A stretch of DNA of 45,775 nucleotides from Eubacteriales bacterium (GTDB taxonomy: Bacteria > Bacillota > Clostridia > Oscillospirales > CAG-272): positions 1 through 45,775 of the forward strand of contig JBGVMO010000023.1 of NCBI GenBank assembly GCA_045124835.1. The letters run 5' to 3'. A program made the translations under genes and the position numbers. Positions 1-23,215 of the stretch are shown here, in pieces (positions within the stretch are counted from its first letter, which is position 1; each line of letters begins with the position of its first letter). The notes under the pieces were generated by a model that was given only the letters and a program-made list of their open reading frames with translations, made no database searches and was not told the origin of the DNA.

Positions 1-39
1 GCGCCCTTCTCGGCCTATCTGACGCCCGGCCGCTTTTAA
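1..39 (+). CDS. 3' end of a gene entering from the left (…APFSAYLTPGRF*), product unknown
   Basis: Frame 1 is open to TAA at 37-39 and is followed by a terminator-like hairpin; too short to identify. Confidence 0.35.
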   Translation, partial: APFSAYLTPGRF

Positions 40-49
40 CTGAAGCTTC

Positions 50-99
50 AAAAAACGAAGAGCAAGAACGGAGGAACGTCCTCGTGTTCTTGCTCTTTT
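50..99. terminator. Bidirectional rho-independent terminator
   Basis: Stem AAGAGCAAGAAC (58-69) / GTTCTTGCTCTT (86-97) with an inner GAGGA/TCCTC pair; A-tract on the left, T-tract on the right; downstream of the GH127 gene on the minus strand. Confidence 0.8.
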
Positions 100-137
100 A
101 TGTTTTTGCTTGATTGATGCCGCTTCGAAAGCCAACG

Positions 138-1949
138 TCAAATCAGCGGAAGCTCCGTTATACGAAGCTTGGCACAGCCATACGGATACAGCTCTACCGT
201 CTTTTCCTCAGAAAGCGGCAGGCGGCTTTCGGGCACCTTGGCGCAAACGGTATCAAAGCCGTCCTCAAGGCCCCACGCGATTTTTCTGACCGCCGCCTTT
301 ATAACAACGGGCGGTGTTTGCGAGCTGAAGGGGCAATCGGAGATTTCCCGTTGCTCCACCGAGAAAAAGGGAGAGGCGAGGGCATAGCTCCATTCGGACG
401 TCGGGATATATTCATAATCGCAATAGGGGTATTTTCTTTCCACGCCGTTTCGCTCGTATTCGTGTATTTTCTTTTCGTAGGAAATCGGTAACGAGAAAAC
501 GAGAGAGCCGCACTTAACGCTCTTCAAGCCATAGGGCCTATCAACGAGCGTTGGCTCGACGTTAAAGGTTATCTCGATTTTTCTTTGCTCATTGGCCGCA
601 ATGGCGAAGGAAAGCTCCTTGCAAGCGGCAACGGGCGCGCCGTCAACGCAAAGGCCTTGGGCAAAGGAGGGGATTCTGACCTTAAAGCAAATAGGCCTTT
701 GTGCCTTTACCGTATACGAAAGATGATTTTTAAAGGGGTACTCTGTTTGTAGCGTAATTTCCACGCCCTCTGCTTTCAGGGCGGCAGGAATGGGCAGAGC
801 AGAAAGCACGGTGTCGCCCTTATGCATAAAGGCAGAAAGCGCAAGCTTGGGCCAGCCCTGATTGAAGTTTGCCGTACAGCAGCCATAGTTTGGCTCTAAG
901 CCGAAAAGGTGCGCTTCTCCGTTATTCGTGCGGAAAACGGGCTTATTGGGGAAGCTTTGGCAGGCTATCTGGTTGCTCATCTGCACGTACTGGTGCGCCC
1001 ACATATCGTCGCTGATGGTGGCAGGAAGGGCGTTAAAGGCAAGCATTTCCAAGCGCTCAGCCCATTTGCTATCTCCCGTATAGGCATAGAGAAGCTCATA
1101 GGAATACATTTGCTCGACAACGGCGCAAAGCTCCGTTCCCTGTATGGCGCTCAGTCCGGAAAGGCACTCGTCTCCCGTGAAAAGCCCAACGGGCGTGCCG
1201 TTATATTTTTCTAAAACCGTCAAAAGCCGCTCGGCCGCGTCCGTATAGGGTTGGCCAAGCAAATCACAGCTGACTGCCTCGTGCTTAAGCATCATCGCGA
1301 TATTGACGATGTGCGTTTCCTGCGACCATTTATTCAAGGGGCGCTTCCATTTCGGCATCAGGCTCTCATAGTCCGTTCCCTCGGCCTTTACGATAACCGC
1401 AAGCTCCGAAATCCAAGGCTCATCGTACCTTTCGCGAAGAAAATTGAGGGAAATAAAAAGCTCGAACCAACGCGCGCGCCCCCACTCAAAGAGAGAAATT
1501 CTCCCACTTTTAAGCAAGGCGTGATAGTTTTTCAGCACCCGATACACAGCCTCGGGGATTCTTTCGTCTCTTGCGCACTCGTAATAGACAACCAAGACCT
1601 TGGCTATCAGCTGCACGGCCCAAGTATCGTATCCTTCAATTTCCTCTTCCGCGCAGGGACAAATCCAACCGCTTGGCTTCTGATAAGAAAGAATGGCGTT
1701 AACGTACCGCTTGGCCCTTGCTATCAAATCCTCGTTTTCCAATAGATACGCAAGCGGGATAAAGCCGTCAAGCCAATAGGGCACTCTTTCCCAGCCCTCT
1801 GCCTCGCCGCCTATCCACGCGCTGTCTCTGACGTCGCGCCAAACCTTATCCAGATTGCCGCTAAGCCCCTCTGCCTGTATTTCAAGCTGGCGGCGAAGCC
1901 ACCCACTTGGGCAAATTTCCCTTGCGGTATATAAATCCCATTTTCCCAT
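138..1949 (-). CDS. GH127/GH146-like cysteine glycosidase (beta-L-arabinofuranosidase family), cytoplasmic
   Basis: Motifs P.GWL..QL, GWERVPYWLDG, TGDE, GTELCAVVE and YGCCTANFNQGWPK (Zn-binding Glu/Cys/Cys-Cys set of HypBA1-type enzymes); C-terminal L.PYGCAKLRITELP; no signal peptide. Confidence 0.88.
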   Translation of the reverse strand: MGKWDLYTAREICPSGWLRRQLEIQAEGLSGNLDKVWRDVRDSAWIGGEAEGWERVPYWLDGFIPLAYLLENEDLIARAKRYVNAILSYQKPSGWICPCAEEEIEGYDTWAVQLIAKVLVVYYECARDERIPEAVYRVLKNYHALLKSGRISLFEWGRARWFELFISLNFLRERYDEPWISELAVIVKAEGTDYESLMPKWKRPLNKWSQETHIVNIAMMLKHEAVSCDLLGQPYTDAAERLLTVLEKYNGTPVGLFTGDECLSGLSAIQGTELCAVVEQMYSYELLYAYTGDSKWAERLEMLAFNALPATISDDMWAHQYVQMSNQIACQSFPNKPVFRTNNGEAHLFGLEPNYGCCTANFNQGWPKLALSAFMHKGDTVLSALPIPAALKAEGVEITLQTEYPFKNHLSYTVKAQRPICFKVRIPSFAQGLCVDGAPVAACKELSFAIAANEQRKIEITFNVEPTLVDRPYGLKSVKCGSLVFSLPISYEKKIHEYERNGVERKYPYCDYEYIPTSEWSYALASPFFSVEQREISDCPFSSQTPPVVIKAAVRKIAWGLEDGFDTVCAKVPESRLPLSEEKTVELYPYGCAKLRITELPLI

Positions 1950-1974
1950 TGCTTTTTCCTTTCCTTAGCGTCTC

Positions 1975-3993
1975 TTACGCCATAAATTCCGTGCGACTGA
2001 TAATGTGGTTCTGAAATTCCGTATCCAGATCAACAAAGTAGCCGCTCCAGCCCCATACTCTGACTATCAGATTTTTGTGCGCCTCGGGATGCTTTTGCGC
2101 GTCAAGCAAAGCCTCTCTGTTGATGGCGTTCAGCTGTAGCTGATGGCCACCAAGCGTTATAAACGCCTTGACAAGCGCGGCGACCTTCTTGACCCCCTCC
2201 TCGTTTCTGAAAACGGAATCGTGGATTTCCATAGTAAGAGGGCCACCGTTAATCACCCTTGTAAAATCCTGCTTTGTAAAGGATTGTATACAGGACAAGG
2301 GGCCGCTTAGTCTTGCCGTTGGTGAGGGCGAAAAGCTCGAACCGAAGGGCTCACCCTTGCGTCTTCCGTCTGCCGTGGCACCGACCTTGGCACCCTGATA
2401 GAGATATTCCATGGCGCTTCCCGTTCCGGCGCGCAAGACGCCGCCGTGAAGATTTTTGTACTGTGCAAAGACGTCTGCAAAAATTTGCATCAGCATATCG
2501 GCATAAACGTCTGCCTCGTCATCGTTATTGCCCATTTTGGAGCAGGAAAGAAGATACTGTCGAAGCGCGCTATGCCCTTCAAAATTATCCTTGATGGCCA
2601 AAATAAGCTCCTCGGGGGTGCATCTTTTTTCGTCAAAAACTGCCTTCTTTAGCGCCGCAATGGCATCTGCGGCGGAGGAAATGCCCACGCCGTGCGCGCC
2701 GTAATTGTTGTATTTGGCGCCGCCCTCGGAAACGTCAAGCCCGCGCTCGATACAGCCGTCAACAAACACCGAAAGATAGGGAGAGAGCCCTTGCGTTTTG
2801 TTTATCATTCCCTCGGCAACACATCTGCACTCCGCTTCAACGGAGGCCTTTACCTCCTCCAAAAACGCCGCAAAGTCGGTGCAAGCAGAAAGGCAGCCGT
2901 TGACAACCCGTTCTACCGCAAGCGGAAAGTTGACTGCGGAAAAATTGGGAATATCGAAGGCGTTTCCCGGAACGATAAATTCCCAGCAAGCAGCGACCGT
3001 ATAATCGTAGGCGTCCTTAGGCTCATATCCAAGTCCAAGCAGACCGGGGATAACGACGTCATCGTTATTATACTGCGGAAAGCCAAGTCCCTTGGCCGTC
3101 AGGGCGGAGGCGAGAATCAGCCGCTCAAGCGGCGTTTCCTTATCCACACGAAGATTGATTTTCGGGTCTATCAGGCAAAGCTCAGTGGAGGCGCGAAGGC
3201 ACAGCTCGGAAAGGAGATTGTATCTATCCCTCCCGTCAAGGTCGCGTCCGCCAAGCACCATACTCATTCCGTTATCGCCCTTTTGAATACCGAAATAGGT
3301 ATCCGAATCCAAATTGAGCGTGATAAAAAAGTCCTCAAGCAATTCAAAGAGCGCCTCCTCGCTGACGCCGCGCGCAAGGTCGGCCTCAAAATACGGAAGC
3401 ATATATTTATCAAAGCCACCAAGGGTGACGTGCGCGTTACGGTTGCTGCGCAGGGTGAACTGAATGAATTTTAAAAATATCAGCGCCTGATGAAAGCTTT
3501 CGGCCGGGCGACGCGGAACGGTTAAAAGCGCTTGGTAAAGCTGCTCGTTCCCCTCGGCCTTGGCCCTCTCGCGATATTTATCCGCAAGAGCAAGGCTTCC
3601 CTCTATGCCGTCAAGCATAGCTGCGTATAGCTCCTTTTTTCTTTCATCCTTGCACACTGCAAGCTTATCCTTGACGCGCAAAAGAACGGCGTCCATCCCG
3701 ACGGAAAGAATATAGGGATAATCGGGTGTAATATTGCCCGTTGAATTTTTGAAGGTGCGCGCACCGCATTCGCCCTCGGGCGTGCTTGCCACACTTCTGT
3801 TAAAGCCAAAGCTGTCATCCTCAAACAGAACGGGCTCCTCCGCATCCAGCATATAACGCAAAAGATATTGATGAATATATATTTCACTCGTTCCCTCAGG
3901 AAAGGTGATAAGAGGCTTGTCAATTGGCTTTCTTTTGGCCTTGTAGGCACCGTTTTTGAGAAAGGCAAGCTTTTTTTGTATTCGTTCTGTCAT
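1975..3993 (-). CDS. Glycyl radical enzyme (PFL superfamily), uncharacterised subclass
   Basis: C-terminal Gly loop HKNLIVRVWGWSGYF, QLQLN motif, single-Cys loop TVAACWEF, ATADGR..GEP motif; RBS AAGGAGG; directly downstream of an activase. Confidence 0.93.
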   Translation of the reverse strand: MTERIQKKLAFLKNGAYKAKRKPIDKPLITFPEGTSEIYIHQYLLRYMLDAEEPVLFEDDSFGFNRSVASTPEGECGARTFKNSTGNITPDYPYILSVGMDAVLLRVKDKLAVCKDERKKELYAAMLDGIEGSLALADKYRERAKAEGNEQLYQALLTVPRRPAESFHQALIFLKFIQFTLRSNRNAHVTLGGFDKYMLPYFEADLARGVSEEALFELLEDFFITLNLDSDTYFGIQKGDNGMSMVLGGRDLDGRDRYNLLSELCLRASTELCLIDPKINLRVDKETPLERLILASALTAKGLGFPQYNNDDVVIPGLLGLGYEPKDAYDYTVAACWEFIVPGNAFDIPNFSAVNFPLAVERVVNGCLSACTDFAAFLEEVKASVEAECRCVAEGMINKTQGLSPYLSVFVDGCIERGLDVSEGGAKYNNYGAHGVGISSAADAIAALKKAVFDEKRCTPEELILAIKDNFEGHSALRQYLLSCSKMGNNDDEADVYADMLMQIFADVFAQYKNLHGGVLRAGTGSAMEYLYQGAKVGATADGRRKGEPFGSSFSPSPTARLSGPLSCIQSFTKQDFTRVINGGPLTMEIHDSVFRNEEGVKKVAALVKAFITLGGHQLQLNAINREALLDAQKHPEAHKNLIVRVWGWSGYFVDLDTEFQNHIISRTEFMA

Positions 3994-4005
3994 AAGAAGG
4001 CCTCC

Positions 4006-4857
4006 TTAAAGGATTTTAACTTGTATGCCGTACGCACCAAAGAGCGCTTCGCGACTTTCTACGGGCGCTGACCCATCAAACGAAGGGGCGTACTCCCTTC
4101 CTACAAGCTTGTATTTGGCACCTGCCAGCCTGTTATACGGCAAAAGCTCCGCATAATAAACGCCGTTTTCGGCAAGAAGCGAGGCGAGAAGGCGAAGGTT
4201 CTCCTCCGTATCCGTCACGCGCGGAATCAGCGGCACGCGGATAACGAAGGCTCTTTCGCTTTTGGCAAGCGTTTTGAAATTTTCAAGAATGGGGACTACC
4301 GAAGCACCCGTATATTTTTGGTGCAAGGCCTCGTTAATAAGCTTCAGGTCGAAAAGCATATAGTCACAGTTATCAAGCACCGCTTGAAACACCGCAGAAT
4401 CGCAATACCCCGAGGTTTGCACCGCGCGATGCGTTTTTCCTTCTAAAAGGGCAAGGCTGTCAAGCAGAAAGTCGGGGCTTGCCGTCGGCTCGCCGCCCGA
4501 AAAGGTGACGCCGCCGCCCGAAGCATTGAGTATCGGAAGATTTTTTTGCAGCTTATCCAAAAGTGCTTGGGGCGTATATTCCACAGCGGCATAACGGAGC
4601 AAGCCCTGCGGACACGCCTCTATGCTCGCTTGGGTGAAGAGAAGGCGACCGTTTTCGTTTTTGGCCTCCCGCTCACAAGCACCGCAGGAAAGGCAGCCGT
4701 TCGGTGCGCGAAGCACCTGATTTTGAAACGCTTGCCCCTCGGGATTGTGACACCACTCACAGCGCAAGGGACAGCCCTTCAAAAAGACCGTGGTTCGTAT
4801 ACCCGGGCCATCGAAAACCGAAAACTCCTCAATGGCAAACACAAGACCCTTCTTCAT
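4006..4857 (-). CDS. Glycyl-radical enzyme activating enzyme (radical SAM)
   Basis: DGPGIRTTVFLKGCPLRCEWCHNPE (CX3CX2C), ferredoxin-like insert CLSCGAC…ACP, GGVTFSGGEP, LLPYN. Start moved to ATG 4857 ([11 protein letters not shown]). Confidence 0.95.
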   Translation of the reverse strand: MKKGLVFAIEEFSVFDGPGIRTTVFLKGCPLRCEWCHNPEGQAFQNQVLRAPNGCLSCGACEREAKNENGRLLFTQASIEACPQGLLRYAAVEYTPQALLDKLQKNLPILNASGGGVTFSGGEPTASPDFLLDSLALLEGKTHRAVQTSGYCDSAVFQAVLDNCDYMLFDLKLINEALHQKYTGASVVPILENFKTLAKSERAFVIRVPLIPRVTDTEENLRLLASLLAENGVYYAELLPYNRLAGAKYKLVGREYAPSFDGSAPVESREALFGAYGIQVKIL

Positions 4858-4882
4858 TTCCCTCTCCCTTCCTTTTATTTTC

Positions 4883-4929
4883 ATTTTATCACAACCCCAT
4901 TGACAGATACAAGTGTTTTGTTGTATAAT
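4883..4929. promoter_or_regulatory. Overlapping divergent sigma-A-like promoters (araC on +, GRE operon on -)
   Basis: Plus strand: TTGACA (4900-4905) N18 TATAAT (4924-4929). Minus strand: TTGTAT (4907-4912) N18 TAAAAT (4883-4888) with an extended -10 TG. Confidence 0.6.
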
Positions 4930-4961
4930 TATGGCAGTAATTTGTCTTTTCGGAGGAAAAT

Positions 4962-5759
4962 ATGCCTGTTTTTCACCAACCGCACAACTCTATGGGAAAC
5001 CACGCCTACAATGTTTACATATACGAGGGTGTAGATTACGACCTGCATTTTCACAAAAACCACGAGGTAATTTACGTGATAAAGGGCGAGGCACTTTGCA
5101 CCGTGAACGGTCAAACGAAGCGCTTATGCGAGGGTGACTTTGCCTTTTGCCTCTCCAACGAGGTACACGCCATCAAATCCGAGAGCGGCCGCGTTTGGAT
5201 AGGTGTTTTTTCGGAGGATTTCATTCACGAATTCAAAAAGCACCGAGGCGGAAGAACAGGCAGCGACTTTTCCTTCCGCTGTGAAGAGAGCATCATGCGC
5301 TTTCTTTCAGAGAATCTGATTAAAGAGACCCTTTCGGACGTTTTTATCATTAAGGCCTGCCTTTACGCCTTGTGCAGTGAGTATCTGCGACAAATAACGC
5401 TGAAAGAAAAAACAGACCGCCATACAGCCTTAATGGGCGACATCGTCTCTTATATTGAAGAAAATTACAAGCGCGATATTGCTCTTGCGGAGCTTGCCGA
5501 GGCGCTTGGATACGAATACTTTTATTTTTCAAAAATTTTCAACCGTCTTTTTTCCATGAGCTTTAACGATTATATCAATTTATACCGCTTTAACGAGGCC
5601 TGTCTTTTGCTGACCGAAACGGATTTAACGGTTGCAAAAATAGCGAGCACGAGCGGCTTTAAGAGCATTCGTAGCTTCAACTATATATTCAAGAAGCTTG
5701 CAGGCACCTCTCCGCGCGAGTACAAAAGAGGACGTTTTTCCACGCAAAGCAGAAGCTGA
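4962..5759 (+). CDS. AraC family transcriptional regulator with N-terminal cupin domain
   Basis: Cupin LHFHKNHE…H; C-terminal double HTH (LAELAEALGYEYFYFSKIF…GFKSIRSFNYIFKKLAGTSPREYK); RBS GGAGG. Confidence 0.95.
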   Translation: MPVFHQPHNSMGNHAYNVYIYEGVDYDLHFHKNHEVIYVIKGEALCTVNGQTKRLCEGDFAFCLSNEVHAIKSESGRVWIGVFSEDFIHEFKKHRGGRTGSDFSFRCEESIMRFLSENLIKETLSDVFIIKACLYALCSEYLRQITLKEKTDRHTALMGDIVSYIEENYKRDIALAELAEALGYEYFYFSKIFNRLFSMSFNDYINLYRFNEACLLLTETDLTVAKIASTSGFKSIRSFNYIFKKLAGTSPREYKRGRFSTQSRS

Positions 5760-5844
5760 GGGGAGAGCCTTGCCCTGCCCTAACGCCGAGATTGCCGCGC
5801 GCCTTTTCTTTTGTTTTTCCTTTTGATTAAATTCCAAAAAGGCC

Positions 5845-5873
5845 TTGCTTTTTATGGGCTTATATGCTATGAT
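5845..5873 (+). promoter_or_regulatory. Sigma-A-like promoter for the M81-M24 pair
   Basis: TTGCTT N17 TATGAT with TG extension. Confidence 0.55.
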
Positions 5874-5965
5874 AGGTATGCTGAGCTTTATCCTGTAAAA
5901 CGGATGGCAAAGGCAAATAAGGCAAAAGAAAAGGGCCTTCGGAAATTGAAGGCTGGGTGGCAGTT

Positions 5966-7357
5966 ATGAAGGTTTTGGTGGCCTCCTTCCAATGTGAATC
6001 CAACAGTCGCGCCTCTTACCATCCGCAAAAAGAGGATTTTGAATATTTCAAGGGCGAGGATATTTTTAAAAAGCTTGCCGTTAAAGATATTTTCCTGCAA
6101 AACGGTATTACGCCCATTCCCACCGTTTACGCGGTGGCGCTTCCCTCGGGAACGGTGGAAAGAGACATTTACGAGGGCTACAAGGAAGAGATTATGGAGA
6201 TTGTCCGTCAGCATCCCGATGCAGACGGCGTATATATTTTCTTTCACGGCAGTATGGAGGTTGACGAAATTGGCTCGGGCGAGCTGTATCTTTTGAAGGA
6301 AATCAAAAGGGTCGTATCAAAGGACTGCCTGATTTCCGTCAGTCTTGACGCACACGCCAACATTACCGACGAATTGACTGATTACGCCGATATTATCAGC
6401 GGCTTCAAGACGGTGCCGCACACCGATCAGGTGGCCTGTCAGGAGCGCGCGGCACGCGCACTTTGCACCTGCCTGAAGGAGAAAATCCGTCCTTATTCCT
6501 ACACACAAAGAGTGCCCTTCCTTTTGAAAAACGATACGCTGCTTACAGCCTATGAGCCGCTGAAATCCCTGATTGCCGAAACCTATTCCCTTGAGGAAAG
6601 GGAGGACGTTTTTACCGCCAACCTGTTTTTAGGCCACTGCTGGATTGACGCGCCCAACACCGCCGCATCGACCGTTGTGACGGCGAAAAGCAAGGCAGAG
6701 GCAGAAAAAATTGCCAAGCACCTTGCAAACGAGCTTTGGGCAACCAGACGCGACTATAAGTTTTTAATTGAGGCCGAAGCCCCCGAGGAATGCGTCAACC
6801 GCGCCATTCTGGGCAAAGAGGGCCGCATCTTTATTACCGACAGCGGAGACAACACCACCGCGGGCGCAGAGGGCGATACCACGGGCATTTTAGAGCTTTT
6901 CTTGGAGAAGGCACCCAAGAAAAAAACCTGCGTTGCGGGCATCACCGATTACGAGACAGTCAACGCCTTCTGGAATGAGAAGGACGGGGCGGAGGTTTAC
7001 ATAGAGAAATTCGGTGTCAAGGGCGTTATCAAGGCACACGGCGAGATTCTCGGCTGGACCAAGGAAATCATCGGTAAGAGCCTTGCCATCTCCTTCGGGG
7101 AGGTTGACGCGGTGTTTACCGAATACAGAAGCGCCTTTATTGAAAAGGGCAATTTTGACGTGGCAGGTATCGATCTTCTTTCCTACCGCATCGTCGTTGT
7201 CAAGCTTGGTTATCTCTTCACGGAGCTGAAGCCCTTTGCAGACAGAGAGCTGTTTGCCCTGTCGGACGGCGCCAGCTGCGTTGAGCTTGAGCGCTTGAAC
7301 CTCAAGCGCATCGTCCGCCCTATGTTCCCCTTGGACGATTTTGATTTTAAGGCTTAA
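5966..7357 (+). CDS. M81 family (MlrC-like) metallohydrolase
   Basis: Motifs CESNS, FHGSM, SLDAHAN, FKTVPHTD, DSGDN..AG..GD, VVKLGYL, C-terminal RPMFPLD. Start probably ATG 5966 (alternative GTG 5957). Confidence 0.87.
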   Translation: MKVLVASFQCESNSRASYHPQKEDFEYFKGEDIFKKLAVKDIFLQNGITPIPTVYAVALPSGTVERDIYEGYKEEIMEIVRQHPDADGVYIFFHGSMEVDEIGSGELYLLKEIKRVVSKDCLISVSLDAHANITDELTDYADIISGFKTVPHTDQVACQERAARALCTCLKEKIRPYSYTQRVPFLLKNDTLLTAYEPLKSLIAETYSLEEREDVFTANLFLGHCWIDAPNTAASTVVTAKSKAEAEKIAKHLANELWATRRDYKFLIEAEAPEECVNRAILGKEGRIFITDSGDNTTAGAEGDTTGILELFLEKAPKKKTCVAGITDYETVNAFWNEKDGAEVYIEKFGVKGVIKAHGEILGWTKEIIGKSLAISFGEVDAVFTEYRSAFIEKGNFDVAGIDLLSYRIVVVKLGYLFTELKPFADRELFALSDGASCVELERLNLKRIVRPMFPLDDFDFKA

Positions 7358-7393: not shown

Positions 7394-8566
7394 ATGGCTT
7401 ATTACAACAAACAAGAAACCGAAGCACGCGTACAGAAGGTTGTTAAGCTTTTGAACGAGCAAGACACCGACATCGCCATCATCTATTTTGATGAGCTGAA
7501 CGTGGCAAACGGCTGGTATCTGACCGGCTGGTGCGGTCAGTTTGAGAAGGGCGCTGTTCTCGTTGGAAGAGACGGAACCACGATGCTTCTCGGCGGCCCC
7601 GAGAGCGAGCCCTTTGCAAAGCAGGACTCCGCAATCACCGACGTTAGATGCTTCCCCGTTTTCATGGTGCCCGACGAAGAATATCCCTTGGCCACTATCA
7701 TCAGCTTCAGCGAGCTGTTTGAGGAGCTGACCAAGAAGTTCCCCGTTAAGAAGGTTGGTCTGGTTGGCACCACCGATATGCCTTACGCCGTTCACGAGGA
7801 TTTGGTGAAGGGCTTTGCAGGCTGTGAGGTTGTGGATTTGACCGAGGAATACTTAAAGTTCCGTTACGTGAAGAGCGATTGGGAGGTTGAGCAGTGCCGC
7901 GAGGCTACTCGCTTGGCCTGCAAGGCCTACAAGGCAATGGCCGAGAAGGTCAAGGCCGGCAATAAGGAATACGAGGTTGCCGCCGCAGGTGAGGCCGTTT
8001 GCCGCGAGAACGGTGCTGACAGCTTCGCTTACAGAACCATCGTTGGTAGTGGCATTCGCTCCAACGCAGTCGTTCCCACCGCCACCAACAAGGTAATGGA
8101 AAACGGCGAAATGGTTATGCTGGGCATCGCGCCCCGTATCAACGGCTACGCCGGTACCTTTGGTCATACTGTTCCCGTTAGCGGTGAATACACCCCTGAG
8201 CAGAGAAAGTGCCTTATCGACATGATAGAGGTTATGAAGCTGACCAAGAGCATGCTCAAAATCGGCAACACGGGCAGAGAAATCGACGCTGTCGGCAGAG
8301 AGCTGTACGACAAGGGCGGCTATCTGCGCTATCTCGTTTGCCCCTTTGCACACACCATGGGCCTGATGGAAGCAGAGGCTCCCTTCTTTGGCCCCAACGG
8401 TGACGTTGCGCTTGAAAAGAATATGATTATCAACGTGGACGTGTCCTTCTTCGGTCACCCCACGCTCCATGGCTTGCGCGTTGAGACCTGCTACGTGATT
8501 ACCGAAAACGGTGCAGAGCCTCTTTGCCCCGAGTTTGAGGAAGAGCTTTTCAACTACGTTAAGTAA
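7394..8566 (+). CDS. M24 (pita-bread fold) protein, Xaa-Pro peptidase/creatinase-like, with non-canonical metal site
   Basis: Creatinase-type N domain (WYLTG), RYVKSDWEVE, EYEVAA, HTMGL..E.P, GLRVE; strong RBS GGAGG and highly biased codons. Confidence 0.85.
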   Translation: MAYYNKQETEARVQKVVKLLNEQDTDIAIIYFDELNVANGWYLTGWCGQFEKGAVLVGRDGTTMLLGGPESEPFAKQDSAITDVRCFPVFMVPDEEYPLATIISFSELFEELTKKFPVKKVGLVGTTDMPYAVHEDLVKGFAGCEVVDLTEEYLKFRYVKSDWEVEQCREATRLACKAYKAMAEKVKAGNKEYEVAAAGEAVCRENGADSFAYRTIVGSGIRSNAVVPTATNKVMENGEMVMLGIAPRINGYAGTFGHTVPVSGEYTPEQRKCLIDMIEVMKLTKSMLKIGNTGREIDAVGRELYDKGGYLRYLVCPFAHTMGLMEAEAPFFGPNGDVALEKNMIINVDVSFFGHPTLHGLRVETCYVITENGAEPLCPEFEEELFNYVK

Positions 8567-8578
8567 TGTTTACACTAT

Positions 8579-8610
8579 GGCCGCATCTGCCTTGGCAGGT
8601 GCGGCCTTTT
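8579..8610 (+). terminator. Rho-independent terminator
   Basis: GGCCGCATCTGCC-TT-GGCAGGTGCGGCC followed by TTTT. Confidence 0.85.
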
Positions 8611-8616
8611 ATTCTA

Positions 8617-8645
8617 TTGACTTTTTTCCTTTTTTGTACTACAAT
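8617..8645 (+). promoter_or_regulatory. Sigma-A-like promoter for the lipoprotein gene
   Basis: TTGACT N17 TACAAT. Confidence 0.6.
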
Positions 8646-8702
8646 AAGAACAGCGCTTCCTACAATAAAAAGCATCGCCAATGCGGTGCGAAAGGACAGA
8701 CT

Positions 8703-10568
8703 ATGAAATCTTATCTCAGAATTTTATGCTTATTATTGGCTATCGTTTTTTGTTTTTCCGCCTGCAACGGTGGCAACGGCGGCAACGGCGGCAATGAGGG
8801 TGGTAGCACTCCTCAAAGAACGGAATACAATATCGTATTTGCCTTGGCAACCATTCCGCCCGTTATGGCGGCGCTTGACTGCATTGAAAGCGGCAGAGAG
8901 ACCTACGCCATTATTGAGCGCGGAAAAACATATAGCGGTATTGAGGCAATTCCCTATTTCCACAATGCAGGCTTTGACAAGGGAAGCAACTTAAGCACTG
9001 GCTTTACCGAAACGGAATTTGAGGCAATGGTCAATCAGATAAAAGCCTTAAAGGAAGCCAAGGAAGAGGATAAGGAGATTTTCTTCCACATCTACGTGCA
9101 GGACGGCACGGCGCTGATGGGCGCGGCACTGGCGGCAAACGCAGGGCTGACGGCTGAGGAGTTCCACGTTTATATGTGCGAGGACGGCACGCTTGCCTAC
9201 GACACCCTTCGGGATACCTTCGTCGCAGGAAAGACAGTCACCGAGGAAAAGGATGAGGTGTATGACGATTATCTTGAAGCAAGAGCAACCGTCGAAGCCG
9301 AGCTTGCCGCCGTTTTGGCTAAAACAGACAACGCCGTAACGGACGAAGCACTCGTTTACAATATGTCCAAGGCCTTCGCCCTTGCCTCCTTGGAGGGCTT
9401 CACCTACTATTTGCAGGACGAGGCACTCTTAAAGGAGCATCTGGAGAGTGCAGAGGGCACGGAGAAAACCAAGCTGCTTTCCGCCTTTGGAATAGAGGGA
9501 TACGAGGCCGAGGTTGAGGCACATCTGAATCTGAAATATCAGAAAATTGCGGCCGGCGTTGCCAAGCTCACCGACACGCAAAGAACCGATTATCTCACGC
9601 TGATGTATGGCAATTATTACGCCGACACCTATGCCGCCCTGACCCGCACCGAGAGAGCAGGCGAGGCCGCGCCTCTCAAGAAGCTCGTCTTTATCGGCTC
9701 CCGTCACAGCGGCTATCCGAAGCTTGCATCCGATGCGGCCTACGGCATTGGCGGTCTTGCGGCAGACGCCGCTCTCCCCCTTTCCTACGCCGAGCTTGAC
9801 GCCAAGTACAAAACGCCCCTGCTCTTTGCAGAGGAGGCCGACTACAACGCCTTTTTAGCGGCGGTGGAGGACGAGGACAGCTACACCGAGGAGGCGACCG
9901 AGGCGCTGAAGAATGCCGCAAAGGTTGCCTGCTTTAACCTTTATATTGACTATATCTTCACCTTGAAAATGACTTACGCCCTGTACGGCGAGGAATATGA
10001 CCTGATTATGAAGGGGCATCCCAAAGAGGAGCTTGGCTTCCACGGCGACTGGAACAGCCTCTATTCCGTTACACTTGGCGAGGGCGAGGATGCCGTTTCC
10101 TACGTATACGATAAGCTTTTGGACGCCGCCCTTCTTTCCTTCCACGCCAACGATTCCGTCGGCAAGAAAATCGGCACGGTTCCCTACGGCACGGCTGCTG
10201 AAAATCTGGCATACCTTGGCGCTGACATTTCTATTTGCGGGCTGCCCTCCTCCACCTACAACGGCTACGACACGGCAATAGACGTTTTGTGCATCATTGC
10301 CGTTACCAACGAGGACATAAACGGCGACGTCTCACAGGTCAAGGAGCGCTATCAGGCAGGAAACCTGCTTTACACCGAGAATGGCGCGAAGAAAACCGCC
10401 CACTTCTACAACACGGGCAACATTCTCAAAACGGTGGCGTCGCTTTATGAGGACGCCGACAACGGTGCTTCGGCCACCTACCGCGCGCTTTACGAAAGCT
10501 GGCTTCTTTCCGTGCATCCCACCGCAACGGATATTGATGAGCAGGGCTTTCCCACTACGGAACAATAA
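8703..10568 (+). CDS. Acidic lipoprotein with GT80 sialyltransferase-like motifs
   Basis: True start ATG 8703 (RBS AAAGGA); lipobox VFCFSA-C followed by an (NGG)3 linker; ordered motifs LATIPP, MCEDGT..Y, FIGS, MKGHP, ICGLPSSTY. The CDS is confident, the product tentative. Confidence 0.6.
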   Translation: MKSYLRILCLLLAIVFCFSACNGGNGGNGGNEGGSTPQRTEYNIVFALATIPPVMAALDCIESGRETYAIIERGKTYSGIEAIPYFHNAGFDKGSNLSTGFTETEFEAMVNQIKALKEAKEEDKEIFFHIYVQDGTALMGAALAANAGLTAEEFHVYMCEDGTLAYDTLRDTFVAGKTVTEEKDEVYDDYLEARATVEAELAAVLAKTDNAVTDEALVYNMSKAFALASLEGFTYYLQDEALLKEHLESAEGTEKTKLLSAFGIEGYEAEVEAHLNLKYQKIAAGVAKLTDTQRTDYLTLMYGNYYADTYAALTRTERAGEAAPLKKLVFIGSRHSGYPKLASDAAYGIGGLAADAALPLSYAELDAKYKTPLLFAEEADYNAFLAAVEDEDSYTEEATEALKNAAKVACFNLYIDYIFTLKMTYALYGEEYDLIMKGHPKEELGFHGDWNSLYSVTLGEGEDAVSYVYDKLLDAALLSFHANDSVGKKIGTVPYGTAAENLAYLGADISICGLPSSTYNGYDTAIDVLCIIAVTNEDINGDVSQVKERYQAGNLLYTENGAKKTAHFYNTGNILKTVASLYEDADNGASATYRALYESWLLSVHPTATDIDEQGFPTTEQ

Positions 10569-14451: not shown

Positions 14452-15312
14452 TTAACGGTGCTTGGGAATGGGTAACAGGGCGCGAGTTTCCTGCTTGTAA
14501 GCGGCGAAGCCATCCTTTCGGGACTGTCTGCCGTCTGCCATAGGAATACTGACAGCGAAAAACAAAACGGTATTGGCAAGGGCGCCAAGCAAGAGCCCCC
14601 ATGCAGCAGGCGCTAAGGACACCACCGAAAGAGCAACGCCCCACCACATCAATAGCTCGCCAAGATAGTTGGGATGACGGGAATACTTCCAAAGCCCGTG
14701 GCGGTTGAAGGGGGCATCCTTGCTTTTGCGGTAACGGTGCATTTGCACGTCTGCCGTTCCCTGCAACAGAATGGCGCATAAAGAAACACCCAAAAGTGCA
14801 ATGCTTCCCGCATTTGCCGAGAGCCCGTGTATCAGGGCATAGACGGCAGGAAGGGTGCAGGCGTAAACCACGAGCGTTGGCACCATATGAATGCCGATAA
14901 AATTGATAAGGGGATAAAAGGCCCCCGTTTTTTCTTGCAGCATGGTGTAACGCCAATCCTGATGATTGAGTCCACCGAAGGTATACGCCCAGTTGGCCGT
15001 CAGCCGCACACCCCACAAAAGAACGACGAAGAGCAAAAGAGCGCCAAAGAACGTTATCTCCTTGTCGGCGGCGAAGGCCAGAAGAATCACGGGAGGTTGT
15101 ACGCTCCAATAGGGGTCATACACCGAGGCATTTTGAAAGATAAGGCTGAAAAGAAAGGTAAAAACGGTGGCAAGAGCATCCGCCACAAGAAGTGCCAGAT
15201 ACCAAGGCAAAGGGAGCCTGCCGTAAACAAAGGCCCCAAGGGCACCGGCAAGAATATATACTGCCGAAACAGCGAGAAAGCTACCTATACGGCTTTGCTT
15301 AAGTGTCTTCAT
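14452..15312 (-). CDS. DUF1295 membrane protein (steroid 5-alpha-reductase-like)
   Basis: NASVYDPYWS, WGVRLT.NW, QDWRY, ADVQM, GLWKYSRHPNYLGE; multiple TM helices. Confidence 0.9.
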   Translation of the reverse strand: MKTLKQSRIGSFLAVSAVYILAGALGAFVYGRLPLPWYLALLVADALATVFTFLFSLIFQNASVYDPYWSVQPPVILLAFAADKEITFFGALLLFVVLLWGVRLTANWAYTFGGLNHQDWRYTMLQEKTGAFYPLINFIGIHMVPTLVVYACTLPAVYALIHGLSANAGSIALLGVSLCAILLQGTADVQMHRYRKSKDAPFNRHGLWKYSRHPNYLGELLMWWGVALSVVSLAPAAWGLLLGALANTVLFFAVSIPMADGRQSRKDGFAAYKQETRALLPIPKHR

Positions 15313-15320
15313 CGTGTCTT

Positions 15321-15608
15321 TTATAAAGCCTTGTATTCCTTCAGCACCGTGGACTTAACGTAATCGTCCTTCAAGGCACGCATACGCTCCATATGCGGCT
15401 GCTCAATGTGAATTTCCTGATGGCGCTTGGTTTCCCATGCCTCAACCAACAAAAGCTCGTTGGGGTCTGCCTCGGAAAAATAGAAATCGTACTTGTGGCA
15501 ACCGTCCTCGGCGCGGATGGCGGAGAGGATGCCCTCCTTTTTCAGTCTTGCAACGAAGGCCTCTCTCTGGCCGGGCAGACAGGTGAATACAACATAGATG
15601 CGGTACAT
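15321..15608 (-). CDS. Antibiotic biosynthesis monooxygenase (ABM) family protein
   Basis: R.EDGC..Y.F…LLLVEAWE…H...PH pattern, 95 aa. Confidence 0.88.
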   Translation of the reverse strand: MYRIYVVFTCLPGQREAFVARLKKEGILSAIRAEDGCHKYDFYFSEADPNELLLVEAWETKRHQEIHIEQPHMERMRALKDDYVKSTVLKEYKAL

Positions 15609-15634
15609 AGCGTTTTTCCTTTCTTCTTACCTTA

Positions 15635-16822
15635 TTATTTGCCCTGAAGCTTTTTGCCGATGGCGGCGATGTAGGGCTTGATATGCTCCAAGATCTCGTC
15701 CTCGGTTTCTGCCGCAGGGGTGTCGCTCCAAAGACAATAGCCACCGCCCAAAACGCGCGCATTGGGGGCTTCAAGGTTGTTTTCGGGATGCTCGTGATCC
15801 ATCACGTAGGCGTTAAAGCTTTCCTCTATCATTTCGGGGGTAACGTGATGCACGGAGCCAAAGCCGAGGGTGTAATAGGTATAATAATGGTTAAAGTTAT
15901 ACAGGGCGTGTCCCTTATCCAGATAGAATGCAGGGGTGTTTTTGCTATCGTTCGCGGTGGGAAGCCAATACTGCATTTCAAGGGCAGGGTCAAGCTGGGT
16001 AACGCCCGTATAGCCTGTATCAAAGCTACGGTAGGCGTCATCATTCCACATACGGAGCGAGGTATAGCCAAGTGCGCGCAAAAGCGCGCAAAGGTCATTG
16101 ACGTAAAGCACGAAGGCGTCATAGGCCACGGCGTTTTCGTTGCCCGTTACCTTTCGCGCGTAGTCGCGCCAATGGTCAAGGTTTTGCCATTTGGAGAGCG
16201 TTTCGTCGATGGTTTCGCCAAAGCCGAGAAGCTCGTCTCCGCCGATGTCAAACTTGGTACAGCCAAGCTCGCGGAAAAAGAGGCCGTACTCGGTATACAG
16301 GCTCTTGGCAAAGGCAAGCGCCTCGGGATTGATAATATCAATGCCGCGCGAATAGGCGGTTTGCGCCTCTTCCTTGTTGACGCTGGAGCCGTGAACGATG
16401 GAAACCTTGCCATCCTTGTGAAAATAGTTGCCGATGTCCGTCTTGAAATGTGCGTTATACTTCTTGACAACGTAGTTCATATGTCCGGGAGAATCAAGGG
16501 AAGGAATCACCTCAAGCCCGTTTGCCTGCGCGAAGCGAACGATATCCGCCATTTCCTCTTGCGTGATATATTTATCATCGTCCTCGGGACAGCCGTTTGC
16601 CGCGCCGTATACGCAAAGCGAATAGTCGCCCCCCGCAAGCCACGGATACGTTTTGGACTCCAAGCGCATGCCGATGTCCTCGGAGAAATGAATGCTCAGG
16701 GCATTGTAGCCTGCCGCGGCAAGCTCAACAATCAAGCGCTTTATCCAATTGGGCGTATAGTATTTACGCGCACAATCCAACATAAAAATGCGTTCTTCTA
16801 CGCGGTATTTTTCGTTACTCAT
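15635..16822 (-). CDS. GH20 glycoside hydrolase (beta-N-acetylhexosaminidase / lacto-N-biosidase-like), catalytic domain only, cytoplasmic
   Basis: LDCARKYY, HFSED, DSPGH, DIGGDE (catalytic DE), WND, WSD. Start moved to ATG 16822 (RBS AAGGA). Confidence 0.85.
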   Translation of the reverse strand: MSNEKYRVEERIFMLDCARKYYTPNWIKRLIVELAAAGYNALSIHFSEDIGMRLESKTYPWLAGGDYSLCVYGAANGCPEDDDKYITQEEMADIVRFAQANGLEVIPSLDSPGHMNYVVKKYNAHFKTDIGNYFHKDGKVSIVHGSSVNKEEAQTAYSRGIDIINPEALAFAKSLYTEYGLFFRELGCTKFDIGGDELLGFGETIDETLSKWQNLDHWRDYARKVTGNENAVAYDAFVLYVNDLCALLRALGYTSLRMWNDDAYRSFDTGYTGVTQLDPALEMQYWLPTANDSKNTPAFYLDKGHALYNFNHYYTYYTLGFGSVHHVTPEMIEESFNAYVMDHEHPENNLEAPNARVLGGGYCLWSDTPAAETEDEILEHIKPYIAAIGKKLQGK

Positions 16823-16833
16823 TGCTGTTTCCT

Positions 16834-17136
16834 TTACATTCTCTTTATCTTGCAAAAGCTTCTCTTTTTGCACTTGGGGCATTTCAACATTCTCTTGTCC
16901 ATATAATGGAGAGAAACGGAAAATTGATACCATTTGGCCTTAAATTCTTCATTGCAATGGGGGCAAATGTAGGTTTGCGAAAGCAATCGCATATACACCA
17001 AGACGAAAACGAGCGCCAAGGCGATGGCTAGCACGTACCAAGGCACCTCTACCGTTTTTCCTATCAGATTGACGGTGCAAGAGGAAAGGGTGAGCGGCAA
17101 AAGCGCACAAAGAAGGATGAGGGAGAGTTTTTTCAT
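16834..17136 (-). CDS. Small membrane protein: lipobox-like signal, TM helix, Zn-ribbon (CPHC…CPKC)
   Basis: MKKLSLILLCALLPLTLSS-C; hydrophobic WYVLAIALALVFVLVYM; two CxxC pairs; RBS AGAGG. Confidence 0.7.
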   Translation of the reverse strand: MKKLSLILLCALLPLTLSSCTVNLIGKTVEVPWYVLAIALALVFVLVYMRLLSQTYICPHCNEEFKAKWYQFSVSLHYMDKRMLKCPKCKKRSFCKIKRM

Positions 17137-21684: not shown

Positions 21685-23058
21685 TCAATCTGCCGCATCA
21701 AAGCTTTCAAGCACACTTCTCTTTTCGGCCTTGACGTCACCGTGCTTCACGAAGCACATAGAGACGGCGGCAAGCACCATAAAGATGGCGGCATAGGGGA
21801 ACAGGATTCGGTAGCCGAAGTCAGGATAGGCCTTGCGGACGGCAGAAATCAGGAAGCCTGACACAATGGGAGTTGCCACCTGAGCGGCCATAGAAAAGGC
21901 GTAATAATAGCCCGTGTACTTACCGACATCCTCCTCACTGCTGATTTGCACAGCCATCGGGAAGGAGTTGACGTTAATGGCGGCCCAACCGATGCCGACC
22001 ATAGCGAAGACCACGTAAAAGACGATTTTGGCAGAGGCGAAGAGCGCCGCATCCATAAAGGTGGCGGCGATAAAGCCCGAAAGCATCAGGCCAATACCGA
22101 TGAAAATAACGGGACGGCGGCCGATTCTCGAGGAAAGGGCGCCAACGGGAATAAAGGCAATAGCGGCGGCAACGAGGGCAACGAGAGTAAAGCCCGAGGA
22201 CTCGGAAACGCCGATATGAAAGACGTTTTCACAGTAGCGGGAGATGGCGGTGGTGACACCGTTATAGGCCATAAACCAAAGGAACACGGAAAGAAGGATA
22301 AAAAGAAGCGAGCGTCTGCTTTCCTTCTGGCTGACGGCAAGATGGACGGTTTTGGGCGCGTCCTTCTCGGAGTCTTCAATTTCCTGACGAACGAGCGCTG
22401 CTGTTTTCCTTTCCCTGACGGTCAGAAGGAAAATGCCAACGGCCAGAAGCATAAAAGCGGCAAGCGCCAGAATGACGGGAAGGTAGACCGTGCTTGAGGC
22501 AGGGGCACTCGTTCCGTCCGGCAGCTTTTCCTTTTTCACCAACAGCATCACGAGAACGAGGGAAACACCGCCGCCAACCGTTCCCATCAGGTTGATGATG
22601 GCGTTCGCGCGGCTACGCAGGGGCGCCGGCGTCAAATCGGGCATCAGGGCAACGGCAGGAGAGCGATAGGTGCTCATCGCGAGAAGCAGAAGGAAGAGGG
22701 CGATGAAGAAGATGGGAAAATTGTCAATTTTTTCGGCAATGCCCATCAAAGCGAGGAAAAGAACGGCTAAAAGGGTTCCGCCCACGATATAGGGCGTTCT
22801 TTTGCCAAGGCGCGTGGCCGTTCTATCCGAAAGCGTACCAAAAAGAGGCAAAAGAAAGAGTGCCAATATGTTGTCAAAGGACATAATAACGTTGGTAACG
22901 GCCGTTTTACTTCCCTGTCCAAAAATAGCCTCCAGCGTATCGCCAAAGGAAAATTCGAGCAGATAGGGAATAACCTGATCATAAAACTGCCAGAAAGCCG
23001 AGATAGACAAGAACGCAAGGCCGATAAAAATAGTTCTTTTTACATTTAATTTACCCAT
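21685..23058 (-). CDS. MFS transporter (SLC45/glycoside-cation symporter-like)
   Basis: LSDRT.TRLGKRTPY, YRSPAVALMPD, ~12 TM helices. Start ATG 23058. Confidence 0.9.
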   Translation of the reverse strand: MGKLNVKRTIFIGLAFLSISAFWQFYDQVIPYLLEFSFGDTLEAIFGQGSKTAVTNVIMSFDNILALFLLPLFGTLSDRTATRLGKRTPYIVGGTLLAVLFLALMGIAEKIDNFPIFFIALFLLLLAMSTYRSPAVALMPDLTPAPLRSRANAIINLMGTVGGGVSLVLVMLLVKKEKLPDGTSAPASSTVYLPVILALAAFMLLAVGIFLLTVRERKTAALVRQEIEDSEKDAPKTVHLAVSQKESRRSLLFILLSVFLWFMAYNGVTTAISRYCENVFHIGVSESSGFTLVALVAAAIAFIPVGALSSRIGRRPVIFIGIGLMLSGFIAATFMDAALFASAKIVFYVVFAMVGIGWAAINVNSFPMAVQISSEEDVGKYTGYYYAFSMAAQVATPIVSGFLISAVRKAYPDFGYRILFPYAAIFMVLAAVSMCFVKHGDVKAEKRSVLESFDAAD

Positions 23059-23186
23059 TGCCAAAAACCGCCTTTTGTAAAATTTATACACCGTTATTTT
23101 ACCATAGCTTTCCCTTCTTGTCAATGAGAAAAAGAGGGAAAGAAGAAAGAGAAAGCGGCCAAAGAGAGTAAAGCGCCTCTCTTCCC

Positions 23187-23215
23187 TTGACAAGCACGGA
23201 AAGCTATGCTATACT
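23187..23215 (+). promoter_or_regulatory. Sigma-A promoter for ribF-prmA-rsmE
   Basis: TTGACA N17 TATACT with TG extension. Confidence 0.75.

Follow-up and report, generated by a model that had tools for sequence, protein, structure and literature searches.

A compact glycyl radical enzyme encoded beside a GH127-like glycosidase in gut Clostridia, a candidate radical eliminase or isomerase of sugar-derived substrates

Glycyl radical enzymes (GREs) are oxygen-sensitive and drive consequential anaerobic chemistry in the gut, including the formation of trimethylamine, p-cresol, and hydrogen sulfide precursors and the use of hydroxyproline. According to the mechanistic passages of a 2026 GRE review (PMC13450708), all GRE eliminases and isomerases keep a Cys-X-Glu (CXE) motif whose glutamate is hydrogen-bonded to a substrate hydroxyl, glycerol dehydratase (GD) employs His164 to protonate the leaving hydroxyl, and the sole GREs known to act on sugars are the isomerases YbiW and PflD. 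On the glycosidase side, HypBA1 is described, in the part of PMC8106489 dealing with its active site, as carrying a Zn-(Cys)3-Glu site in which Cys417 serves as the nucleophile and Glu322 as the acid/base. No paper linking a GRE to GH127, DUF1680, or arabinofuranosidases was found in full-text searches of the literature, and the terms "glycosidase" and "glycoside hydrolase" have 0 occurrences in the 2026 review, which hence mentions no such link for YbiW or PflD. Here, we describe a stretch of DNA of 45,775 nucleotides (nt) from an Eubacteriales bacterium (contig JBGVMO010000023.1, hereafter the window) in which genes for a radical-SAM activase, a short GRE of 672 amino acids, and a 603-residue GH127-like protein follow one another beside a divergent gene for a cupin-AraC regulator. 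Our best reading of the short GRE is that it would be a new radical eliminase or isomerase that works outside any microcompartment and takes a substrate derived from sugars.

The short GRE carries the catalytic motifs of its superfamily. In a Pfam scan, it matched PF02901 at 302 bits and, over residues 553-654, PF01228 at 72.5 bits. In an alignment of 82 family members, on which all of the conservation counts given here are based, G648 of the radical motif R645-V-W-G648-W-S is invariant (82/82), as are C336, W337, and E338 of the cysteine loop A-A-C336-W337-E338, with C336 aligning with C433 of GD and with the catalytic cysteine of PflD. The protein falls under every NCBIfam cut-off and thus into no characterized class, scoring 348.3 bits versus 678.2 for TIGR01774 (the PFL2/glycerol dehydratase subfamily), 293 versus 1109 for pyruvate formate-lyase (PFL), 271 versus 1100 for HypD (NF043068), 268 versus 1000 for HpfG (HpfG/HpsG class), 239 versus 1050 for CutC, 177 versus 1100 for indoleacetate decarboxylase, and 157 versus 1150 for HPAD. 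Its best solved relatives are GD (1r8w, 285.9 bits), PflD (8yjo, 271.6 bits), and diol dehydratase (5i2a, 256 bits), the last becoming the top solved relative when residues 70-345 are searched alone. The family models align from residue 81-85 of the GRE but from profile position 153-155, indicating that ~70 N-terminal residues are missing from it, and residues 1-98 matched no PDB chain even at E <= 10.

Further differences from these relatives concern the putative substrate pocket. N87, invariant in 82/82 sequences, aligns with the histidine of the G-x-G-H motif in 5i2a, 1r8w, 8yjo, 9rco, and 8id0 (two of which are PflD entries), so that the general-acid histidine (His164 of GD) is replaced throughout the family; all five of these nearest solved relatives have C-V-E where the short GRE has C-W-E. 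Moreover, the invariant N350 and G525 (conserved in at least 97% of the family) align with D447 and Y640 of GD, which we take to be residues lining the GD pocket, while H188 is kept in 79/82 sequences. As the CXE motif is kept but the positions of the histidine, D447, and Y640 are changed, the short GRE would possess the eliminase/isomerase apparatus with a different pocket, and we infer from these residues and from the characterized enzymes that its reaction is of the eliminase or isomerase type. The change of the acid histidine to asparagine implies either that another residue, perhaps H188, would be the acid or that the leaving group would need no protonation. Judged by its sequences, the short GRE is a distinct, well-delimited, compact (~670 amino acids), and motif-complete clade within the known GRE superfamily.

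The 603-residue protein gave a weak match to PF07944 (36 bits, cut-off 24.9), covering profile positions 288-373 of 376 alone, and the best phmmer hit against the PDB had an E value of 0.015. Its AlphaFold2 model, built on a 57-sequence alignment with a predicted local distance difference test score (pLDDT) of 96.4 and a predicted template modeling score (pTM) of 0.95, displays the (alpha/alpha)6-barrel plus beta-sandwich architecture of GH127. In a PDB fold search with this model, the top 21 ranks listed were all occupied by GH127 and GH146 structures, HypBA1 included, with template modeling (TM) scores of 0.54-0.73, E values down to 6.6e-24, and identities of 11-17%. E261, E273, C275, C357, and C358 are invariant in 57/57 sequences of the clade, and E273-x-C275 and C357-C358 can be aligned with an E-x-C and a C-C motif in 6ex6, a GH127 structure. 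The modeled fold and the aligned motifs argue that the 603-residue protein belongs to the GH127 superfamily and very probably functions as a cysteine glycosidase with a putative Zn-(Cys)3-Glu site. Some NCBI records label members of its clade "glycoside hydrolase family 127 protein," and the clade is large, with 7961 matches in one protein search and 3741 clusters at 50% identity (E <= 1e-3) in another. Since this clade is separate and no characterized member of it was found, the specificity of HypBA1 cannot be transferred to the 603-residue protein.

ORF (open reading frame) calling placed the activase, GRE, and GH127-fold genes co-oriented and tightly packed on the minus strand (138-4884), recovering the same gaps as the initial annotation of this DNA, i.e., 12 nt between activase and GRE (3994-4005) and 25 nt between GRE and the GH127-like gene (1950-1974). 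The same annotation had the operon ending at one terminator, and a terminator-like hairpin was found past the stop at 138; this call comes from a consensus scan alone, which returned 16 terminator-like sites in positions 1-6200 versus 9.9 expected. The hairpin is also followed by a T-run when read on the plus strand and may, from its sequence, be bidirectional. The 12- and 25-nt spacers together with the single terminator indicate co-transcription of the three genes. The cupin-AraC gene is divergent from the operon as previously noted, across an intergenic region of 77 nt, but the overlapping promoters suggested for this region found no support in the promoter scan, which gave a consensus promoter on the araC strand (12/12 positions of the sigma-70 consensus) and none on the operon strand. 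No microcompartment, dehydrogenase, kinase, or transporter gene is present in the operon or adjoins it within the window, the profile scans agreeing on this point with the initial annotation, and the absence of a microcompartment from the operon would suit a product other than a volatile aldehyde. No signal peptide was recognized on the operon proteins, as judged only by eye from their N-termini.

Contigs from other public runs bridge the junctions, so that the gene order cannot be put down to an artefact of assembly. The junction between the GH127-like gene and the GRE gene is bridged by contigs of 4 other public gut metagenome runs (4 studies), that between GRE and activase in three runs (X2, X3, and X4), and that between activase and araC in X2 only. 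The spacer between the GH127-like and GRE genes is polymorphic and has 10 nt fewer in X2, X4, and X6 contigs, owing to one 10-nt deletion at 1964 in X2 and X4 and to several small deletions in X6; in these strains, the spacer would be ~15 nt.

The two remaining proteins are of recognizable classes. The 292-residue protein is a radical-SAM GRE activase (TIGR02494, 239.8 bits versus a cut-off of 174.35), and such an activase adjoins nearly all of the family GREs that have visible flanks. Its Met10 (ATG at 4857) follows a purine-rich stretch resembling a ribosome-binding site, and this codon, rather than the start of the listed 292-residue ORF, may be the true start. The 265-residue regulator has the architecture of a cupin sensor fused to a double helix-turn-helix, with Cupin_2 (39 bits) and AraC_binding (33 bits) in its N-terminal part and HTH_18 (72 bits) and HTH_AraC (62 bits) in its C-terminal part, and is thus a member of the cupin-AraC class.

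In the protein collection, GREs of 670-675 amino acids that are 53-82% identical to that of the window form over 100 clusters at the 90% identity level, and the named ones are all called "formate C-acetyltransferase" or "pyruvate formate-lyase." The named records come from metagenome-assembled genomes of gut or rumen Clostridia and from two bins labelled Alistipes, and the window's stretch itself was found in animal-gut metagenome runs. A short GRE is encoded by 29 of 401 sampled genomes of the window's order (E <= 1e-100) and by 0 of the 25 other genomes of its family in this sample, including the two of its genus, so that the clade is patchily distributed. Concerning the two Alistipes-labelled (Bacteroidota) bins (L010 and L017), the GRE of L010 nests among Clostridia-type sequences in the tree, and the presence of short GREs in these bins could reflect either horizontal transfer or a binning error. 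Two genomes encode two short GREs each: in G312, the copies lie on different contigs (L063 and L064; branch lengths 0.079 and 0.089), and in G236, the two sequences have diverged further (L054 and L070). The genome of the window (G000) encodes a second, full-length GRE on contig C15 (PF02901, 787 bits) among 7 matches to microcompartment shell proteins (PF00936, ~10.5-18.7 kb), which looks like a classical GRE-associated microcompartment locus separate from the short GRE. A partial PFL-like sequence at the edge of its contig C114 makes a third match.

We compared the gene neighborhoods of 66 loci, comprising the window, 18 loci from species genomes, 30 from the order sample (~+/-9 kb), and 17 metagenome contigs, many of which have little or no flank; neighboring ORFs were called by a simple script, and the loci retrieved by the genome and metagenome scans mostly carry GREs 38-53% identical to that of the window. 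The recurrent feature is the activase and GRE pair, in either order, and a relative of the cupin-AraC protein (at least 100 bits) lies next to the pair in 21/66 loci. The conserved core is AraC plus activase plus GRE, and the glycosidase partner varies. Genes of the GH127 superfamily directly flank the GRE or the activase in 10/66 loci, or 9/65 nonredundant loci, L089 being near-identical to L012 (the window, L001, L003, L012, L055, L058, L068, L081 with two copies, L089, and L095; PF07944 scores of 286 bits in L003, 267 in L012, ~276 in L068, 261 in L055, 55 in L058, and 337 in L095). These genes belong to at least 4 mutually distant clades, differ in their order relative to the pair, and turn up on both main branches of the GRE tree, a quick IQ-TREE reconstruction of 54 GREs of at least 600 amino acids from which L095, L017, and other partial GREs were left out. 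A gene of the 603-residue clade itself adjoins the GRE in 3/66 loci, namely, the window, L001 (GRE 82% identical), and L081 (GRE 44% identical), whose 603-residue-clade protein matches that of the window at 583 bits and which also has a second, canonical GH127 gene (PF07944, 371 bits). Contigs of matching length (45998, 2209, and 2279) in the protein searches with the GRE and with the 603-residue protein suggest that further contigs may carry both genes.

Other glycosidases occupy the same position elsewhere. GH51-like genes (PF06964) adjoin the GRE pair in 6 loci (L010, L065, L067, L070, L076, and L087), which are near sisters of GH127-linked loci in the tree, e.g., L065 and L067 beside L068, and a GH36/raffinose-synthase-like gene follows the pair in L012/L089, L016, L072, and L078 (5 loci, 4 nonredundant). 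The remaining glycosidase neighbors are of GH2, GH3, GH4, GH38, GH78, GH123, and Melibiase families, and a glycosidase is found within three genes of the pair in at least 22/66 loci. Further neighbors include FGGY kinases, xylose-isomerase-like TIM barrels, a split transketolase, DUF4867, and sugar transporters of the major facilitator superfamily (MFS). In four related metagenome loci, such a transporter comes directly after the short GRE; that of L083 matches PF00083 at 346 bits, and those of L084 to L086 are its phmmer homologues (618-897 bits). In three loci, a second, distant GRE (162-232 bits to that of the window) is encoded near the short one, two of them with an activase of its own, making up tandem radical-enzyme systems.

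Hence, the view that GRE homologues are linked to GH127 or other glycosidases was borne out, whereas GH127 as a fixed operon partner was not, as its place may be taken by GH51-like, GH36-like, GH2, GH3, GH38, or GH78 enzymes. The initial annotation had proposed a pathway for a rare sugar. While the glycosidase linkage on which that proposal relied does recur, the partner varies, with the 603-residue clade confined to the three loci cited above, and varied partners favor a common sugar-derived substrate over a rare sugar specific to this glycosidase.

Beyond adjacency, the two functions co-occur at the genome level. The only PF07944 match genome-wide adjoins the GRE both in the genome of the window (85.6% complete) and in G089 (100% complete), a single-gene adjacency that we estimate would arise by chance in ~0.1% of cases per genome (~1,400-1,900 genes, two flanking slots). 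PF07944 is present in 187/401 genomes of the order, distributed as 25/29 GRE-positive versus 162/372 GRE-negative genomes (Fisher odds ratio 8.1, p = 7.9e-6) and, when stratified by family, as 24 observed versus 16.1 expected GRE-positive genomes (p = 0.0014), statistics that overstate the significance of the enrichment because the genomes are related. Altogether, the tie between the GRE and glycosidases is reproducible but loose.

We propose the following model for the short GRE. The radical-SAM activase would install the glycyl radical on G648, from where the radical would move to C336; the C336 thiyl would take a hydrogen off a substrate carbon that bears a hydroxyl, E338 in the invariant C-W-E loop would deprotonate that hydroxyl, and a vicinal C-O or C-X bond would break, following the 1,2-eliminase/isomerase logic of GD and of YbiW/PflD, before the hydrogen goes back onto the product. 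Intracellular exo-glycosidases, here the Zn-cysteine enzyme of the GH127 superfamily, would supply the carbohydrate-derived substrate, and the cupin-AraC protein would sense a sugar or oligosaccharide and control this cytoplasmic operon. We regard it as evenly balanced whether the substrate is indeed sugar-derived and functionally coupled to the glycosidases. As GH127 and GH51-like enzymes, i.e., beta- and alpha-L-arabinofuranosidase families, are the most recurrent partners, a substrate derived from L-arabinofuranosides is favored, and the GRE is probably linked to L-arabinofuranoside breakdown. The substrate class that we would name, L-arabinofuranose, an L-arabinose-type pentose, or a close derivative, is speculative, and that it is specifically an L-arabinose-type pentose is doubtful. 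Going one step further, the short GRE could carry out a hitherto undescribed radical transformation of L-arabinofuranose or an arabinofuranoside as an anaerobic pentose route without L-arabinose isomerase in gut and rumen Clostridia, one possibility being dehydration at the hemiacetal or at C2 to a deoxy-pentonolactone or a deoxy-ketopentose. The glycosidase and the GRE would then constitute a two-step module of release and radical conversion under AraC control. A proposal this specific is unlikely to be right in full. A role of the GRE as a bypass of L-arabinose isomerase was examined through AraA_N (PF02610), strong matches to which occur in 42/401 genomes, and was not retained, the difference between the GRE-positive (1/29) and GRE-negative (41/372) genomes being nonsignificant (p = 0.34). 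This comparison is uninformative, since most GH127-positive genomes have neither AraA nor the GRE.

Several observations weigh against the proposed model, the AraA result and the relatedness of the genomes among them. The GRE has no adjoining GH127 gene in 56/66 loci, the neighborhoods are very mixed, with 100 and 105 further neighbors yielding 117 and 139 Pfam families, respectively, and there is no downstream enzyme conserved across the 66 loci. GH127 is common in the order and mostly occurs without the GRE, and the 603-residue clade is far larger than the GRE clade, so that, by numbers, most of its members have no GRE beside them. The adjacency could also reflect in part a general location in AraC-rich carbohydrate islands. 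Finally, the active-site positions of the GRE were mapped only by sequence alignment to solved relatives.

These observations leave room for other explanations. That the GRE and the GH127-like gene are adjacent by accident, with no functional coupling, could be argued from the variable partner, the frequency of GH127 in the order, and the many genes of the 603-residue clade that must lie apart from any GRE. We find this barely credible given the short spacers and the single terminator that indicate co-transcription, the recurrence of the adjacency in 9 nonredundant loci with at least 4 GH127 clades and on both main GRE branches, and the two genomes in which the sole GH127 match lies beside the GRE. 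An alternative with more substance would be that the short GRE is a dehydratase of small diols or polyols (of the glycerol, 1,2-propanediol, or ethylene glycol type) acting on by-products of plant-sugar fermentation, its glycosidase neighbors merely reflecting the AraC-governed carbohydrate islands in which it resides. The CXE motif, the identity of the solved relatives (GD at 285.9 bits and diol dehydratase at 256 bits), the self-contained AraC, activase, and GRE core with its variable neighbors, and a Zn-alcohol dehydrogenase adjoining the pair in L082 would all suit such an enzyme. Nevertheless, the histidine that protonates the leaving hydroxyl in GD, as stated in the GD passage of PMC13450708, is found in the five nearest solved relatives and is an invariant asparagine here. 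The positions of D447 and Y640 are occupied by asparagine and glycine, and a full-length GRE is already encoded elsewhere in this genome, within the microcompartment locus of contig C15, the usual home of aldehyde-forming diol dehydratases. Such a dehydratase would also leave unexplained both the GH127 enrichment and the lone genomic GH127 beside the GRE, and we consider it unlikely.

Two further alternatives retain a link to carbohydrates and modify the chemistry. The GRE could act on a glycoside, an anhydro-sugar, or a phospho-sugar, e.g., through radical abstraction at C2 and the subsequent departure of the anomeric substituent or ring oxygen, with the hydrolases processing its products or substrates. 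YbiW and PflD open sugar rings by such chemistry, as outlined in the section of PMC13450708 on these isomerases, PflD ranks second among the solved relatives (271.6 bits), and the loss of the acid histidine would suit a leaving group able to depart unprotonated; the MFS sugar transporters of the four metagenome loci and the FGGY kinases nearby in L004 and L054 point the same way. This explanation remains decidedly unlikely in our view, because no kinase, phosphotransferase system component, or aldolase is conserved with the clade and because PflD keeps the very histidine that the short GRE has lost. A breakdown of hydroxyproline-rich plant glycoproteins may be envisaged as well, in which GH127 would trim beta-L-arabinofuranose from hydroxyproline arabinosides, peptidases of the M81 and M24 types would cut the peptide, and the GRE would act on hydroxyproline or a derivative like HypD, HplG, and HpyG. 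HypBA1, the founding member of GH127, belongs to the pathway that handles the beta-arabinooligosaccharides of hydroxyproline-rich glycoproteins, according to the substrate description in PMC8106489, several GREs act on hydroxyprolines, as listed in the relevant part of PMC13450708, and M81/MlrC-like and M24 Xaa-Pro-peptidase-like genes do lie after araC both in the window and in L001. However, these peptidases accompany the GRE in 2/66 loci only, both close relatives, the score against the HypD model is far from its cut-off (271 versus 1100 bits), the window showed neither a pyrroline-5-carboxylate reductase nor an amino-acid transporter, and GH51-like, GH36-like, GH2, GH3, and GH38 partners do not fit, making a hydroxyproline pathway very unlikely. 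An eliminase or isomerase of a sugar-derived substrate, therefore, remains our preferred reading of the short GRE.

Table 1. Coordinates of the operon, of the other genes of the window, and of features at other loci
Feature	Sequence	Position	Strand	Remark
Terminator-like hairpin + T-rich tail	window	63..84	-	downstream of the GH127-like stop at 138; consensus scan alone
GH127-like gene	window	138..1949	-	ORF call, 603 aa
GRE gene	window	1975..3993	-	ORF call, 672 aa
Activase gene	window	4006..4884	-	ORF call, 292 aa
Sigma-70 consensus promoter, TTGACA-18-TATAAT	window	4900..4929	+	upstream of araC; 12/12 positions
Cupin-AraC gene	window	4962..5759	+	ORF call, 265 aa
M81/MlrC-like peptidase	window	5957-7357	+	after araC
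M24 Xaa-Pro-peptidase-like gene	window	7394-8566	+	after araC
685-aa ORF	window	8511-10568	+	after araC
GH20-family hexosaminidase-like gene	window	15635-16933	-	10-17 kb from operon
MFS sugar-type transporter	window	21685-23193	-	10-17 kb from operon
Full-length GRE	contig C15 of G000	14957-17032		850-aa frame
MFS transporter	L083	4197-5516		directly after short GRE
MFS transporter	L084	3586-4905		directly after short GRE
MFS transporter	L085	1986-3011		directly after short GRE
MFS transporter	L086	5711-7048		directly after short GRE
Second, distant GRE	L049	14496-17595		near short GRE
Second, distant GRE	L080	8898-11917		near short GRE
Second, distant GRE	L068	1670-3655		near short GRE

The other genes of the window are listed in Table 1. 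The 685-residue ORF that follows the two peptidase genes has no Pfam, NCBIfam, or PDB sequence match, and this trio is conserved beside the operon in L001 and in none of the other loci. The GH20-like and MFS genes are separated from the operon by unrelated genes, with no evident link to it, and the remainder of the window consists of genes unrelated to the operon.

The short-GRE clade occurs in Clostridia of animal and human guts with no function assigned to it. Should its link to glycosidases prove functional, the clade would bring a new reaction into the fermentation of plant glycans such as arabinan, arabinogalactan-proteins, extensins, and pectin side chains, and would provide a pathway context for the large, uncharacterized clade of 603-residue GH127-like proteins. 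At three genes plus a dedicated regulator, the operon is compact enough to be tested directly in a heterologous host.

Among the closest known systems, GD (1r8w) and propanediol dehydratase (5i2a) share with the short GRE the PFL2-type barrel, the C-terminal glycine-radical domain, the Cys-x-Glu motif, and an activase encoded next door. They differ by their length (787-843 versus 672 amino acids) and by the histidine of G-x-G-H and the C-V-E loop, where the GRE of the window has Asn87 and C-W-E; moreover, the latter lies outside any microcompartment context and has glycosidases as neighbors. YbiW and PflD of Escherichia coli, isomerases of 1,5-anhydroglucitol-6-phosphate and 1,5-anhydromannitol-6-phosphate, resemble it in being cytoplasmic and microcompartment-free and in keeping CXE, as far as the passages of PMC13450708 on these two enzymes go. 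They are, however, full-length proteins of ~780-826 amino acids, PflD has the histidine where the short GRE has asparagine, and the short clade has no conserved phosphotransferase, kinase, or aldolase partners. HypD, the trans-4-hydroxy-L-proline dehydratase, is likewise a gut-microbial GRE eliminase with CXE, whose substrate comes from hydroxyproline-rich proteins, the plant forms of which bear beta-L-arabinofuranosides removed by GH127 enzymes; in contrast, its structure (6vxc) matches the GRE of the window at 215 bits in two separate stretches, and the peptidase context of the short GRE is limited to the window and L001. As for the glycosidase, the 603-residue protein is only 11-17% identical to the retaining beta-L-arabinofuranosidases HypBA1 and BtGH146 and matches PF07944 in its last ~90 positions only, but it is predicted to adopt the same three-domain fold (TM 0.61-0.73), appears from the alignment to share their Glu-x-Cys, Cys-Cys, and upstream Glu motifs, and, like them, is a cytoplasmic protein of ~600-660 amino acids.

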